The translations under genes and the position numbers were made by a program. A DNA stretch of 64,000 nucleotides from a phage. The notes beneath the pieces are model-generated. The model was not told the DNA's origin. It worked only from the letters and a program-made list of their open reading frames with translations, and ran no database searches. How positions within the stretch are numbered: the stretch's first letter is position 1; the number at the start of each line of letters is the position of its first letter. The DNA is taken from sequence record PX104379.1; one strand, given 5' to 3'. This document shows, in pieces, positions 3,096 to 14,989 of the stretch.

Positions 3096-3311
3096 TTAAT
3101 CGTCGCAGTCGACGCTCAATTCCCAAAACTCTTCTACAGTATAAGTTTCAGTATCATTTTCAATACAGAAACGTTCATTACTGTTATTTGCTAAAGTAGC
3201 ATTAACTGTCGGTTTCTCGCTAGTGCTCTTAAGAGGTGAAATACGAATTAACTGATCACCGTTATCTAAACAGAAAATTTCACCAACTTTTATATCTTTA
3301 AAGATTTTCAT
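3096..3311 (-). CDS. hypothetical protein (71 aa)
   Basis: ORF track; compact leftward gene array. Confidence 0.45.
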   Translation of the reverse strand: MKIFKDIKVGEIFCLDNGDQLIRISPLKSTSEKPTVNATLANNSNERFCIENDTETYTVEEFWELSVDCDD

Positions 3312-3426
3312 AATTCACCTCAAGGAGTATAAAATCCGAATGCAGTTGTTGACCATCCCATCCAATATGGAAAATTTGCACCAATGTAAAACATAAGAAT
3401 ATAAAACCAAATGTTTAGTAAATTCA

Positions 3427-3645
3427 TCATTTTACACCATTCCAAATTGTTTCAACTACGGATTTTAAACCATTTTGATGAATATCCATTCCGACTACTG
3501 CCATCAAATAGATTCCAACTACAACTGAACCTAAGGCAAAAATCAGCATAAAAATGAATAAAACCGGAAAAATATTATCGAAAAACCATTCAATAAATGT
3601 AAAAGCACTGCGTTTACGCTTCATATTTTCCTCACATAAATCCAA
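3427..3645 (-). CDS. small membrane protein (72 aa)
   Basis: Two hydrophobic helices (FPVLFIFMLIFALGSVVVGIYLMAVVG). Confidence 0.5.
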   Translation of the reverse strand: MDLCEENMKRKRSAFTFIEWFFDNIFPVLFIFMLIFALGSVVVGIYLMAVVGMDIHQNGLKSVVETIWNGVK

Positions 3646-3745
3646 AGTAAACGTTTAATACATCAATCATTAAAACGATTGGGAATATACTCAAAACTAT
3701 TAGTATTATAACTACATTCCATATAGCTTTAACAATCTTTTTCAT
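3632..3745 (-). CDS. small membrane protein (37 aa)
   Basis: ATG-started MKKIVKAIWNVVIILIVLSIFPIVLMIDVLNVYFGFM preceded by GGAGG; the longer track ORF to 3880 starts at TTG and runs through the promoter cassette. Confidence 0.4.
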   Translation of the reverse strand: MKKIVKAIWNVVIILIVLSIFPIVLMIDVLNVYFGFM

Positions 3746-10441: not shown

Positions 10442-10459
10442 AAAGGCCCGAAGGCCTTT
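10442..10459 (-). terminator. GC hairpin (UUCG loop)
   Basis: aaaggcc-cgaa-ggccttt. Confidence 0.5.
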
Positions 10460-10728
10460 TATTTAAAACGAATAGTTGAATCCTTAAAGAACAGCCCAGA
10501 ACATACTGTTCCTTCTACTTTCTGCCCGGTAGGTCCAATAGCACGAAATCCAGTATGTTGGAAATCATTTTCAGAGCAACCGAACCAGTTATATCCAGTG
10601 ATTTCAATATTAGTAAAACCACTTGAAGACAAAACTTTAGTTGCATTATCAGCATCAGTACATCCTACTAAAGACACTGCTAATACTAATGCTGCGATAG
10701 AACGATTAATATATTTCATAATTTTCAC
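10459..10728 (-). CDS. putative lipoprotein (89 aa)
   Basis: Signal peptide with lipobox LVGC. Confidence 0.55.
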   Translation of the reverse strand: MKIMKYINRSIAALVLAVSLVGCTDADNATKVLSSSGFTNIEITGYNWFGCSENDFQHTGFRAIGPTGQKVEGTVCSGLFFKDSTIRFK

Positions 10729-11096
10729 TTAAATTTAATGGCTTGAAGAAGACTAATAACTCTCAAGCGGCTTCTTTCATCTTTAACTGTAAAAGAAAGA
10801 GGATCGCCAGATTTCATAGTGATAGTGCATTCAAAATCAAAATCTTCTGTAACTTCTTCGAATAGGTCAAATTCTTCATCATAAATTAGAACATTACTCT
10901 GAAAACTGTGAAGAATTTTTCCATCATTTCCAGATGCTGTACTAATCATTGTGACATTATTACCTTTCATATCTTCAACGATAAATTCGCTTGTAGATAT
11001 TACATTACTAATAGAACCATTCCTATAAATAGCAGAAAATAGATATTTCTTTTCTTCACCTTCGCGAATGCGATATTTCTTACCGATTTTAAACAT
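10725..11096 (-). CDS. hypothetical protein (~123 aa)
   Basis: ORF track; ATG at 11096 preferred over the GTG at 11102. Confidence 0.5.
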   Translation of the reverse strand: MFKIGKKYRIREGEEKKYLFSAIYRNGSISNVISTSEFIVEDMKGNNVTMISTASGNDGKILHSFQSNVLIYDEEFDLFEEVTEDFDFECTITMKSGDPLSFTVKDERSRLRVISLLQAIKFK

Positions 11097-11098
11097 AA

Positions 11099-11275
11099 TC
11101 ACCCTTTAAGTAAGTCGTAAAAACCACCATTCACATGCTTAGGAGCAGAAGGCCGACGAGTAGACAAACGATGACATTTAGGGCAAACATCATTTTCTCG
11201 TTCAGAAATCTTTTTAATTTTTTCATATTCATGCCCACAATCTTCGGATTGGCATTTATAATCATACATTGGCAT
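11099..11275 (-). CDS. zinc-ribbon protein (58 aa), FmdB-like CxxC...CxxC
   Basis: MPMYDYKCQSEDCGHEYEKIKKISERENDVCPKCH...; not in the ORF track. Confidence 0.5.
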   Translation of the reverse strand: MPMYDYKCQSEDCGHEYEKIKKISERENDVCPKCHRLSTRRPSAPKHVNGGFYDLLKG

Positions 11276-11277
11276 AA

Positions 11278-11697
11278 TTATTCCTTAAAGTGTGCTTTCA
11301 ACATCTGATACAAGGACCATGCATGTTCATTATTTTCAATAGTAACTTTCATGACTGGGAATTCTGTGAAATCTTCTATTTGTTCTTGCTCTTTCTCTTC
11401 CTGCTCTTCAGCTGCCTGGTATGGATTTTCCACTTCATCAAAGAACACAGCTTCACTCGTTGAAAGCCAAATAAAATCTTCATCCAAAATATCTTTACCA
11501 GAAGATAACGCCAATTTTCCACTAGATGTCACAAGTTTAGTAGGACGACCAAGATAGTCAATATCTGTAACTCTAAAAGGTTCCATACCAAGACGTCGTG
11601 CATAAATTCCGTTTTCGGTATGGTCCTTGATAAAATCTTCTTGAGCTTGTTTATTTTTAAATTGATACCATTTATTAACTTCAAATTTAATAGCCAT
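11278..11697 (-). CDS. hypothetical protein (139 aa; possibly GoF-like by position and size)
   Basis: Acidic Glu/Gln-rich centre; positional argument only. Confidence 0.45.
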
Positions 11698-11912
11698 TAA
11701 TAAGTTTCCTTCCAGTAAGTTGTGCCATCTTCAGTAATTTCACGAAATACACCGTAAATTGGTTGTTTATCACCAACCTTTTCATACACATAAACCGAAG
11801 TCAAGTGAGTAAACTTAACGGTATGTTCTTTTTGAACTACTACCAAATCTGGATCGAATAATACATCTTCAAATTCGTCATTAGTGCAATTCTGAACAAT
11901 TTTACGTTTCAT
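11697..11912 (-). CDS. hypothetical protein (71 aa; Cef-sized)
   Basis: ORF track; same size as T4 cef at a comparable position. Confidence 0.4.
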
Positions 11913-11925
11913 TACAATTTCCTCA

Positions 11926-12207
11926 TTAATTGAACAGTGGAGCGATGCGTTTCAGAAGAGTAGCAGCACCTTTAGCGAATTTTACATCATGAAAAACAGT
12001 TTCTTCTTCCGTTATAACACGAGCTTTAATGTTTTCACAATCCCAATTTTTGCGAACAATCTTCAAAAGCTGCAGTAAATCTTTACATTCAGCAATATCG
12101 ATAACACATCCACGAGAATCTTCCATTATCGCACGATAACCATAAGCCATACCGTAATCGTTGAAAGATTGCTCGATGATAATTAAGTTTTCCATTTTAT
12201 TCTCCAA
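11926..12207 (-). CDS. hypothetical protein (93 aa)
   Basis: ORF track. Confidence 0.45.
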   Translation of the reverse strand: MENKMENLIIIEQSFNDYGMAYGYRAIMEDSRGCVIDIAECKDLLQLLKIVRKNWDCENIKARVITEEETVFHDVKFAKGAATLLKRIAPLFN

Positions 12208-12302
12208 GTTGTTTTCTGTATCAGTAGTTGATATTGATATAGTACCATAATCAACTACTGATGTATATAGTTTTATGAAAAAATTTTAAACTTTATGCAA
12301 AT

Positions 12303-12722
12303 TTATGCTAAAGCTGCTTCGCACCATTTTTTAATTTGGAATTCAGGAACTACCATGAACTGGCCTGCAAAAACAATATTGTAGAGCTTGACGCCATCTT
12401 CTACCCAACGGTCCGAAATAAAACCAGCGACTTGATTCGTTGTCCATGGAGTTCCATCTGTTGCCGCCGCAATTGTGAATTTATGGTCTTTTACAACTAA
12501 AACTGAAGAACAAAGTTTCCATTTAAATGCGCTTTCTTCTGGCTCAATGAACTGACTTGAGACATAACCAATGTTACCATCAGCGTCACGAACTTTAACC
12601 TCGTTACGACCAAAAACTGGATCACTTACAGAAAGAACTTCAACCAGCTTTCCTGCAACTTTAGAACGAGAAGCAACAGATACATATACGTAATCACCAG
12701 TAGAGAGATTTACAATATTCAT
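12303..12722 (-). CDS. MotB-region paralog 1 (139 aa)
   Basis: Shares C-terminal block GFISDRWVEDGVKLYNIVFAGQF and N-terminal ASRSK.AG.LVEV with the two neighbours. Confidence 0.55.
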   Translation of the reverse strand: MNIVNLSTGDYVYVSVASRSKVAGKLVEVLSVSDPVFGRNEVKVRDADGNIGYVSSQFIEPEESAFKWKLCSSVLVVKDHKFTIAAATDGTPWTTNQVAGFISDRWVEDGVKLYNIVFAGQFMVVPEFQIKKWCEAALA

Positions 12723-12731
12723 AATAATTCC

Positions 12732-13208
12732 TTAAGCTTTACGAGGAGAAGCATAACGAGTGATTTCAGATTCTTCAACAACCCGGAAGTCACCTAAGAA
12801 TACGATATTGTATAGCTTTTTACCGTCTTCAATCCATTGGTCTGTGATGAAGCCACACATCCTATCAGTTTTACTTGGACCAGCGAAATCATCAATATAA
12901 TCGAATTCTTCATCAGTTACAAATTCAACGCCTTTACACAACGCCCATTTAAATTGTGCATTAGACTCAGTGGATTCAACTTCTTCAACAGAAGCAAAAT
13001 GAGAGCTAACACGAGTTTCCAGAAATTTAGGACTTACGTAAGCGTACTGAGTTTCAGTTTTTCCAGAACTAGGAATGATTCGAACTTTAACTTCTTTAAC
13101 ACGACCAGTACCATTAGTACGAAGTCCTACCACTTCAACTAGACGACCTGCAGCTTTAGAACGAGATGCAGATGATACACGCTTAATTTCACCAATATTA
13201 ATAATCAT
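12732..13208 (-). CDS. MotB-region paralog 2 (158 aa; likely the MotB equivalent)
   Basis: GFITDQWIEDGKKLYNIVFLGDF block; size close to T4 MotB. Confidence 0.55.
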   Translation of the reverse strand: MIINIGEIKRVSSASRSKAAGRLVEVVGLRTNGTGRVKEVKVRIIPSSGKTETQYAYVSPKFLETRVSSHFASVEEVESTESNAQFKWALCKGVEFVTDEEFDYIDDFAGPSKTDRMCGFITDQWIEDGKKLYNIVFLGDFRVVEESEITRYASPRKA

Positions 13209-13242
13209 AGTTATCTCTCACTTGTTAAAAAGATTTTATACT

Positions 13243-13272
13243 CCACGGGACCATTATACTCTGGTCCCAAGA
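13243..13272 (-). promoter_or_regulatory. T4-type early promoter with dyad symmetry around -10
   Basis: Minus strand GTTTACAaactcttgggaccagagTATAATggtccc; GGGACC/GGTCCC inverted repeat spans the -10. Confidence 0.6.
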
Positions 13273-13281
13273 GTTTGTAAA

Positions 13282-13719
13282 CTAGCTTACACGAACATTA
13301 ATCACTGCGCTGCGAGGAACTACAGAGTACTCTCCAGCATGAACTACGTTCAGAAGTTCAACACCATCTTCAATCCACTGATCAGTCACCCATCCACCCA
13401 CAGGATTCGCGAATGGACGACGAATATAAACTGCCTTACACAGCAGATCAGTTGGATCTTCAGGTTTTTCAATTTCTGTCAATAGACTAAAATCTTTTTC
13501 ATAAATAATAAGCGGTGATACCATTCCATAATAGTTTCTAATTTCAATATACATCATACCGATAAGAATTCCGCTATTAACACTAATAACAGTAAAAGGA
13601 TATCCGCCAGTTAAACCAAGAAGTTCACAAAACTTATTATGAGCTGTATTAGACAGTACCGAAAAATTCTTAATTTCATCAAATTTTTTCAATTGATAAA
13701 CAGCATTATTTTTAATCAT
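13282..13719 (-). CDS. MotB-region paralog 3 (145 aa)
   Basis: GWVTDQWIEDGVELLNVVHAGEY block. Confidence 0.5.
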   Translation of the reverse strand: MIKNNAVYQLKKFDEIKNFSVLSNTAHNKFCELLGLTGGYPFTVISVNSGILIGMMYIEIRNYYGMVSPLIIYEKDFSLLTEIEKPEDPTDLLCKAVYIRRPFANPVGGWVTDQWIEDGVELLNVVHAGEYSVVPRSAVINVRVS

Positions 13720-13729
13720 AATTTTCTCT

Positions 13730-14242
13730 TTAATCTAAGGTAATAAAGCCTTTTAATTCGGCATGGGATTTACGGAACATTACTTGGTGCCCGCCAATGA
13801 TAACTTGATCATCTGGCACTTCATAAATCGCAATGTACATTCCACGTTCTTTTAAGTCTTCACGCTCTTCTCGAGTGAACCATCTCATCATATCATATTC
13901 ACTAGAGAAAGCAAAATGATATAATGCAATAAACCACAATGGAATATAATTTTCAATTCGTGAATAATCTTTATTCCATTTAGTTTTAATAACATCATTA
14001 GCATTTTCAACTAATAACTTATCATCGTGTGGAATAGGAATACTTTCATGACTTTCATAATTATCGCTATGATGATGAAATGATGATGAATTAATACCAC
14101 AAAATTTTAACCAAGTTCGAGTTTTCATAGAATCAAATCCACGATAAGGAGTCGATTGGACGCATAACTCTTGCCTAATTTTCATTATACCACTATCATC
14201 ATTTAATGCGCTAAATGATGATTCAACACGATAAATTTTCAT
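13730..14242 (-). CDS. hypothetical protein (170 aa)
   Basis: ORF track. Confidence 0.5.
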   Translation of the reverse strand: MKIYRVESSFSALNDDSGIMKIRQELCVQSTPYRGFDSMKTRTWLKFCGINSSSFHHHSDNYESHESIPIPHDDKLLVENANDVIKTKWNKDYSRIENYIPLWFIALYHFAFSSEYDMMRWFTREEREDLKERGMYIAIYEVPDDQVIIGGHQVMFRKSHAELKGFITLD

Positions 14243-14269
14243 TTTATTATCCTCAGTAGCTATGGTGTT

Positions 14270-14299
14270 ATAGTACCATAACTAACCGAGGAAGTAAAC
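14270..14299 (-). promoter_or_regulatory. T4-type early promoter
   Basis: Minus strand GTTTACTtcctcggttagttatggTACTAT. Confidence 0.6.
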
Positions 14300-14305
14300 A
14301 ACTTT

Positions 14306-14989
14306 TTATCGTTTTGTTGGAAGAGACAGAGGATCGCATTCTTCCTCTGATGGAGCGTCTTCAAGACCCATAGCATAGCGCAAAGCATACTTCATCATCA
14401 GGATGTCTTTCGCACAGTCATGAATGGAATCATGCGCAACGAATCCATTTAAAGTTCCCTTTGGAAGAGGACACGTGGTCATATCACGAACAAGTAGAAG
14501 TGCTTCAATTCTAGTACGAATGTCGCGTTGATTCCAGAATTTACATGGTTCTAACTTAAATGTGTCAAGCTCATTCTCAGAAACGCCGTTAAGACGTTGA
14601 ATATCGCGAATGAGATCGACTAAAATTGGAAAATCAAACGACATTCCACGGCACCAGCCTTGAGATTTCCAAGGATCGATATTATGCGCATTGATGTAAT
14701 CATTAAATTTTGCAATACCATCGATAGTGCTTACATCTTCATCTGATGGTGCAATATTTTTTCTAGCTTCAGGTGATTGATTTTTCCACCATTCGATAGT
14801 GCTTTTAGTAAAAAGACGGTGTCCTTTTTGACTTTTTAAGTCAAATTTAATTTTAATGCCACGTGAAACTAATTCATCAAATGTTTCAACGACTTCTGGA
14901 TTAGGGTCAAAAGCAATTACAGCCAAATCAATAACAGCTGCTTTTTCACCGCTTCCCATTGTTTCAAAATCTATAATAAAATCAAACAT
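14306..14989 (-). CDS. dexA: DexA exonuclease A
   Basis: 227 aa as T4 DexA; DEDD-like N-terminus FDFIIDFET. Confidence 0.8.
   Translation of the reverse strand: MFDFIIDFETMGSGEKAAVIDLAVIAFDPNPEVVETFDELVSRGIKIKFDLKSQKGHRLFTKSTIEWWKNQSPEARKNIAPSDEDVSTIDGIAKFNDYINAHNIDPWKSQGWCRGMSFDFPILVDLIRDIQRLNGVSENELDTFKLEPCKFWNQRDIRTRIEALLLVRDMTTCPLPKGTLNGFVAHDSIHDCAKDILMMKYALRYAMGLEDAPSEEECDPLSLPTKR

Follow-up and report, generated by a model that had tools for sequence, protein, structure and literature searches.

Three neighboring early genes of a T4-like phage with a common C-terminal domain, and their relationship to MotB

Introduction

Three neighboring genes of a phage (sequence record PX104379.1) encode proteins of 139, 158, and 145 amino acids (aa) that resemble one another near their C-termini, and the locus raises the question of whether these genes are tandem copies of a single gene, how they relate to motB of phage T4, and how the cluster came about. 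Positions given here refer to the window, i.e., the 64,000-nucleotide (nt) stretch of that record that was analyzed, in which the genes of this locus are all on the minus strand. An original prediction, made from the sequence, held that the genes were three tandem paralogs of the MotB region, that they had arisen by a local triplication, and that they were typical of fast-evolving host-interaction genes. The three open reading frames (ORFs) were found exactly where it had placed them (12303-12722, 12732-13208, and 13282-13719). We consider it very probable that the locus is a motB gene-family cluster of a T4-like phage (Tequatrovirus, RB3-type) made up of three early genes, the products of which have a common C-terminal beta-barrel domain of ~60 residues; that degree of confidence applies to the explanation as a whole, including the domain roles and the origin that we infer for the cluster. 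The pattern is real and its location correct, but it was already published in 2021, when Patterson-West et al. aligned 102 phage homologs, described the C-terminal domain common to MotB and MotB.1, proposed that one gene may derive from the other by duplication, and listed several phages with more than one copy, among them RB69 with two motB genes plus motB.1 (PMC7827196, section 3.2). The cluster is usual T4-type early-region content and no new kind of system. Two practical by-products of the analysis are a frameshift in the T4 reference sequence of MotB.1 and a predicted acidic, SH3-like domain that shifts the question of how MotB-family proteins act.

Results and Discussion

Similarity among the three proteins

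BLASTP aligned the 139- and 158-aa proteins over their full length with 40% identity (E = 2e-29). The 158- and 145-aa proteins also gave a full-length alignment (E = 8e-13), carried by the C-terminal block, while the 139- and 145-aa proteins were 53% identical over 32 aa (E = 2e-11). Smith-Waterman scores for the same three pairs were 228, 114, and 107, respectively, against shuffle means of ~28 (standard deviation ~4.5), corresponding to z-scores of 41.7, 18.9, and 18.7 (1000 shuffles), and when the C-terminal domains were compared by themselves, the observed score was reached by none of 2000 shuffles for every pair. Compositional similarity is therefore ruled out, both for the full proteins and for their C-terminal domains. 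The motif G(F/W)(I/V)(S/T)D(Q/R)W(I/V)EDG..L.N(I/V)V, which the original prediction had read near the C-termini, was accurate as written and occurs in all three proteins, as does the broader core G-[FWY]-[IV]-[ST]-D-[QR]-W-[IV]-E-[DE]-G-x2-L-x-N-[IV]-V; across a 36-sequence family alignment the residues L, G, D, W, E, L, N, and V are invariant. Alignments delimit the common domain to residues 66-139 of the 139-aa protein (12306-12527), 86-158 of the 158-aa protein (12735-12953), and 84-145 of the 145-aa protein (13285-13470), all on the minus strand. All three proteins also pass the Pfam motB family PF17613 (gathering threshold, 25 bits), with 147.1 bits over the full length of the 158-aa protein, 72.1 bits for the 139-aa protein, and 32.7 bits for the 145-aa protein, where the match is confined to the C-terminal 36 residues (104-139). 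Their homology and their placement in the MotB region are thereby borne out.

The N-terminal halves tell the genes apart. The block predicted as ASRSK.AG.LVEV is common to the 139- and 158-aa proteins only; the KOW-like stretch SRSKAAGxLVEV that they have there is absent from the 145-aa protein, and the N-terminal domains of the two gave a score of 89 that no shuffle among 2000 attained. Comparison of the 145-aa N-terminus with those of the 139- and 158-aa proteins was not significant (score reached by 157 and 987 of 2000 shuffles for the two comparisons; hhalign probability <1%), and homology between the N-terminal domains of MotB and MotB.1 was rejected on these grounds. An internal duplication, i.e., homology between the N- and C-terminal domains, was likewise rejected (hhalign <1%, shuffle tests not significant). 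Since the 145-aa protein has neither the MotB N-terminal block nor significant N-terminal similarity, it is a relative through its C-terminal domain only and not a MotB ortholog. The predicted tandem triplication consequently holds in part: the 139- and 158-aa proteins are full-length paralogs, but the third gene, motB.1, carries the common C-terminal domain on an unrelated N-terminal domain, so that domain shuffling was involved. A tblastn search with all three proteins found no further copies of the domain in the 64-kb window; neither Rfam nor, for any of the five cluster proteins, the PADLOC-DB defense and anti-defense profiles returned a match.

A 158-aa ortholog of T4 MotB

The 158-aa protein matched T4 MotB over its full length with 47% identity (phrog_1671, 230 bits), and its gene occupies the slot of T4 motB, downstream of the same promoter-hairpin. 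It is therefore the ortholog of T4 MotB. That upstream element (13240-13281, minus strand) consists of a TTTACA-N17-TATAAT promoter (13281-13253) overlapping a hairpin (13274-13240; fold -20.2 kcal/mol, z -4.4); the promoter is the strongest sigma-70-type/early-type match in the region (11/12) and is conserved in T4 and RB3. From N- to C-terminus, the protein comprises a basic KOW-like domain, an acidic linker, and the common domain. Two features distinguish the locus from that of T4: the window's motB allele has strongly diverged from T4's and is nearer to Mosigvirus alleles, and there is a second copy, unknown to the T4 genome, that has no linker and an N-terminal domain that is acidic, not basic.

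T4 MotB has been described as an abundant early protein that is toxic in E. coli, binds DNA, modified or not, irrespective of sequence, and co-purifies with H-NS and StpA, with a 2-fold effect on burst (PMC6070864). T4 MotB was further found to alter the H-NS footprint and to up-regulate H-NS-repressed host genes (PMC7827196). Overall, T4 MotB covers the DNA of host and phage, alters the placement of the host silencer H-NS on DNA, and approximately doubles burst size. Going by sequence relationship, this role would carry over to the 158-aa ortholog.

The 139-aa protein is a second, conserved MotB copy

The second MotB paralog ("MotB-like transcriptional regulator"; phrog_1671, 173 bits) is 40% identical to the 158-aa MotB and 37% identical to T4 MotB. 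It has the two-domain layout of T4 MotB, with no linker and an acidic N-terminal domain. Since its gene starts 9 nt past the motB stop, behind a Shine-Dalgarno-like AAGGAA, it is probably co-transcribed with motB. Copy number among related phages varies: of the 774 phage records with some MotB match, 208 contain an ortholog of the 139-aa protein (identity of 80% or more), and each of these 208 has MotB at two places. In its database cluster the paralog is a named, widespread protein. It is an old, conserved second MotB copy in which the linker is gone and the N-terminal domain retains little of its positive charge.

MotB.1 and a frameshift in the T4 reference sequence

The 145-aa protein is 78-80% identical to T4 MotB.1 (phrog_2333, 229 bits over full length), its gene is located between motB.2 and motB as in T4, and RB3 annotates the ortholog as motB.1. 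It is MotB.1, in which the MotB-type C-terminal domain is joined to an N-terminal domain of unrelated origin; the latter has been placed in a GoF/MotB.1/Frd.2 family with an "LSm-like fold" (Kim et al., 2025; PMC12152347). The window protein, like the 143-aa MotB.1 of T4T, has a complete MotB-type C-terminal domain, whereas the T4 reference protein of 119 aa stops inside the motif. In the T4 reference (NC_000866.4 / AF158101.6), an extra G in motB.1 (GGATTGGAAGATGG) shifts the frame within the common motif, leading to the annotated protein of 119 aa (13.8 kDa), and EDGVELLNVVHAGEYSVVPRSAV is still encoded downstream in another frame of the same DNA. The T4 stretch concerned (motB.1 at 3292-3651 of the NC_000866.4 locus stretch, continuing downstream to 3143) is homologous to 13282-13400 of the window. 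When a 91-nt query across the site was used, only two entries among the matches listed, both of them reference entries, matched all 91 nt; also among the matches listed, 13 records (11 other T4- or T4T-named records plus RB55 and RB59) aligned except for one gap of 1 nt. In the annotations of T4T and MT984581, MotB.1 is 143 aa long and includes the entire domain. Since none of the independently sequenced T4 genomes in the collection has the extra G, wild-type T4 MotB.1 is almost certainly a 143-aa protein with a full MotB-type C-terminal domain.

The frameshift is mentioned in neither PMC7827196 nor PMC12152347. NC_000866.4 was the source of the T4 sequence behind the motB.1 amber-mutant plasmid of Kim et al. 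(2025), who relied on commercial gene synthesis and quoted MotB.1 as 13.8 kDa (PMC12152347, sections 2.2 and 4.2). Given that source and that mass, the MotB.1 expressed in their study may lack the common domain. Negative results published for T4 MotB.1 may accordingly come from a protein without this domain, provided that the expression construct, too, was based on the reference with its 1-nt insertion, and studies based on the 119-aa reference protein merit revisiting.

Exchange of alleles and cassettes at the locus

Compared with T4, the cluster forms an island of divergence between near-identical flanks (11278-14989). Amino acid identity to T4 is 99% for dexA, 64% for motB.2, 78% for motB.1, 47% for motB, 96% for cef, and 82% for goF, and the 139-aa paralog is absent in T4. 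Identity to the Mosigvirus ESh15, in which motB.2 is absent, is 68% for dexA, 77% for motB, 84% for the 139-aa paralog, 70% for cef, and 72% for goF. The window's motB is thus 77% identical to the Mosigvirus gene product vs. ~47-48% to T4's. Since motB and the 139-aa gene are nearer to their Mosigvirus alleles than dexA is, whole alleles evidently move between genera. Selection was assessed by pairwise ratios of nonsynonymous to synonymous substitution rates (dN/dS), which were 0.15-0.41 throughout; between the 158- and 139-aa paralogs, dS was ~1.35. The cluster genes are under purifying selection, and at the level of pairwise comparison positive selection was rejected, since no dN/dS value reached 0.5.

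These values bear on the original prediction's reading of the cluster as fast-evolving host-interaction genes, here taken as rapid diversification under positive selection. The island itself would fit such a reading, given that motB (47%), motB.2 (64%), and motB.1 (78%) are flanked by dexA (99%) and cef (96%), and so would the differences in copy number between phages and the action of MotB on the host nucleoid (PMC7827196). However, dS is high wherever dN is high, which indicates old alleles exchanged by recombination and not accelerated substitution; the paralogs separated long ago, the core motif hardly varies between architectures, and the window's motB, nearer to the Mosigvirus allele (77%) than to T4's (48%), points to allele transfer. 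The 139-aa copy, at 84% to Mosigvirus, is better conserved than flanking dexA and cef (68% and 70%). Fast evolution is therefore not borne out, and we regard positive selection for rapid diversification as quite improbable; diversity at the locus stems from the swapping of alleles and cassettes and not from a high rate of point substitution. A still less probable account is that the 139-aa gene is a decaying, redundant motB duplicate with no function of its own that is heading to loss, as in T4. The gene is indeed missing from T4 and from approximately three quarters of MotB-bearing records, and its product is shorter, without the linker, and no longer basic at its N-terminus. Against decay, the 208 records, which span Tequatrovirus and Mosigvirus, keep an uninterrupted reading frame with 83-100% identity; dN/dS relative to the Mosigvirus ortholog is 0.15, with an amino acid identity that exceeds those of dexA, cef, and goF; the gene keeps its Shine-Dalgarno-like sequence at its short distance from motB; and its product gives a confident structural model (mean predicted local distance difference test [pLDDT] score, 86).

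Gene order and protein architectures are modular as well. Mosigvirus genomes (moskry, ESh15) encode, in this sequence, dexA, a protein of 164 aa that has the C-terminal domain, a motB product of 175 aa, the 139-aa paralog, an unrelated 174-aa protein, and cef. A profile of the C-terminal domain, searched against 1.84 billion representatives, recovered ~28 genuine small-protein clusters, all MotB-like, so the family is narrow; long matches (600-1500 aa) were rejected as spurious, being Ig or CarboxypepD_reg repeat proteins. Among family members from metagenomes and phages, P0028 and P0031 are mosaics, P0028 having a T4-type MotB N-terminus ahead of a C-terminal domain of the 139 type, and in P0222-P0224, from Klebsiella phages, the N-terminus is of KOW type and the C-terminal domain of MotB.1 type. 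In its 5' flank T4 motB agrees with the 158-aa gene, in its 3' flank with the 139-aa gene; counted by eye over the last ~42 aa, residues favor neither window paralog as the parent of T4 MotB, were it a recombinant of the two. The T4 spacer (2484-2653 of the NC_000866.4 locus stretch) keeps only the first 8 nt and the last ~60 nt, out of frame, of an 89-aa ORF that follows the 139-aa gene in the window. Since T4 motB is followed by the same element as the 139-aa gene and only the ends of the 89-aa ORF are left, T4 lost material here, and the remnant is a deletion scar beside the missing MotB paralog.

The element in question (12220-12267, minus strand; inverted repeat I2; fold -20.2 kcal/mol, z -5.6) lies downstream of the 139-aa gene and has a TATACA-N17-TACTAT promoter overlapping a hairpin with 20-nt arms. 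A further one (14251-14298, minus strand; fold -23.1 kcal/mol, z -4.9), upstream of motB.2, has TTTACT-N17-TACTAT and a hairpin and forms direct repeat D7 with the element at 12235-12274. Together with the element upstream of motB, these promoter-hairpins bracket variable cassettes, and one lies at the boundary of the insertion or deletion that separates T4 from the window. They resemble the promoter early stem-loop (PeSL) cassettes described previously (Arbiol 2010; Comeau 2014) in being three intergenic TTTACW-N17-TAYWAT-type promoters with a stable hairpin around cassettes; the PST/T4-type PeSL promoter consensus is TTTACW-N17-TAYWAT, and PeSLs have been proposed to mediate modular shuffling (PMC4122927). 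A similar role in recombination may be played by the PeSL-like elements at this locus. The cluster would have originated in one ancient tandem duplication of motB and a domain fusion, with subsequent reshuffling between phages through recombination at these elements and within the conserved C-terminal coding block.

Predicted structure and possible division of labor between domains

AlphaFold2 run on family alignments gave confident models of MotB.1 (pLDDT 83) and of the 139-aa paralog. Secondary structure assigned with DSSP placed strands of the C-terminal domain at residues 96-99, 107-117, 120-127, 130-135, and 139-143 in MotB.1 and at 73-84, 93-108, 111-118, 121-126, and 130-133 in the 139-aa protein, in both cases with a helix of three residues ahead of the fifth strand. 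Five strands and such a helix are likewise seen in the N-terminal domain of the 139-aa model. In SH3-like folds a helix precedes the last strand, whereas in the OB (oligonucleotide/oligosaccharide-binding) fold it lies between strands 3 and 4. These three domains thus have the SH3-like order, and the best fold matches of the models were SH3-like barrels; the C-terminal domains showed neither a helix between strands 3 and 4 nor OB structural neighbors. Sequence and profile searches yielded no relatives with solved structures, and a viral structure library yielded family members only. Likeness to tandem SH3-like barrel readers of nucleic acid and chromatin (Spt5/NusG KOW, the 53BP1 tandem Tudor, and the KIN17 tandem SH3-like domains) is a resemblance in fold of predicted models, with no detectable sequence relationship to the window proteins and no PDB match. 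The window proteins did not reach the gathering score of Pfam KOW (PF00467); P0240, a distant family member, passes Pfam KOW with its N-terminal domain, in support of a KOW-type N-terminus in MotB.

The domains also differ in charge. In the 158-aa MotB the N-terminal domain has an isoelectric point (pI) of 10.7 (13 K+R, 5 D+E) and the C-terminal domain one of 4.6; the corresponding values are 6.5 and 4.8 in MotB.1 and 4.9 and 8.0 in the 139-aa paralog. The predicted SH3-like fold and the acidic common domain suggest separate roles, with the basic KOW on DNA and the common domain as an adaptor. In the explanation favored here, the basic KOW-like domain of MotB would bind DNA, and the common, mostly acidic domain would serve as a module for partner binding or self-association instead of a DNA-binding surface. 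A more far-reaching version, put forward tentatively and considered less likely than not, is that the common C-terminal domain may be an acidic SH3-like (Tudor/KOW-type) adaptor and not a DNA-binding OB fold, either docking all members on one partner (e.g., H-NS/StpA-DNA filaments or the transcription machinery) or permitting mixed oligomers. Interchangeable N-terminal domains would then supply binding to DNA (the basic KOW of MotB), possibly to RNA (the LSm-like domain of MotB.1), or neither (the acidic N-terminal domain of the 139-aa protein, which would be a modulator).

Several points weigh against the favored explanation of the cluster and its domains. Published HHpred results put the C-terminal domain in the OB-fold, cold-shock DNA-binding family (PMC7827196), an assignment that would place DNA binding in the common domain; all three proteins would then bind DNA or RNA through a cold-shock-like OB fold and the N-terminal domains would only modulate. 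In view of the strand order of the models we consider this unlikely. The C-terminal domain of the 139-aa paralog is near neutral and not acidic, and deletion of MotB.1 in T4 was without phenotype (PMC12152347). Experiments on MotB concern T4 MotB only, to which this allele is only 47% and the 139-aa paralog 37% identical. Lastly, the hairpins at this locus overlap the -10 element, whereas the classic PeSL hairpin precedes the promoter.

Neighboring genes and genomic setting

The 2.4 kb around the cluster is 99.4% identical in nucleotide sequence to Escherichia phage FriedrichZschokke and is covered to 93-100% by RB3, RB27, and related Tequatrovirus genomes; in all, 708 T4-like phage records matched it. 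The cluster lies in the early region between dexA (14306-14989, minus strand, 227 aa) and cef (11697-11912, minus strand, 71 aa), in the order dexA, motB.2, motB.1, motB, 139-aa gene, 89-aa ORF, and cef, and the RB3 annotation gives the identical order motB.2, motB.1, motB, MotB-like gene, and cef. motB.2 (13730-14242, minus strand, 170 aa; phrog_1106) is not a member of the family, since its product has no PF17613 match and no similarity to the 139-, 145-, or 158-aa proteins; it is a neighbor of motB.1 within one early transcription unit.

The 89-aa ORF (11926-12195, minus strand; phrog_3720) starts with ATG (93 aa in the ORF list, which counts from an upstream TTG). T4 has neither the 139-aa gene nor the greater part of this ORF. 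In Mosigvirus (L005/L006, 2980-3504), its slot holds a 174-aa "transcriptional regulator" with no PF17613 match, which is another cassette swap at that boundary. Farther from the cluster, a 125-aa ORF (10725-11102, minus strand) is annotated in RB3 (RB3_005) between 39.1 and 39.2 and is absent from T4; its similarity to GoF is marginal only (Smith-Waterman z 3.0). A separate 89-aa ORF (10459-10728, minus strand), which corresponds to RB3 gene 39.1, starts with MKIMKYINRSIAALVLAVSLVGC, a stretch that resembles a lipoprotein signal peptide with a lipobox.

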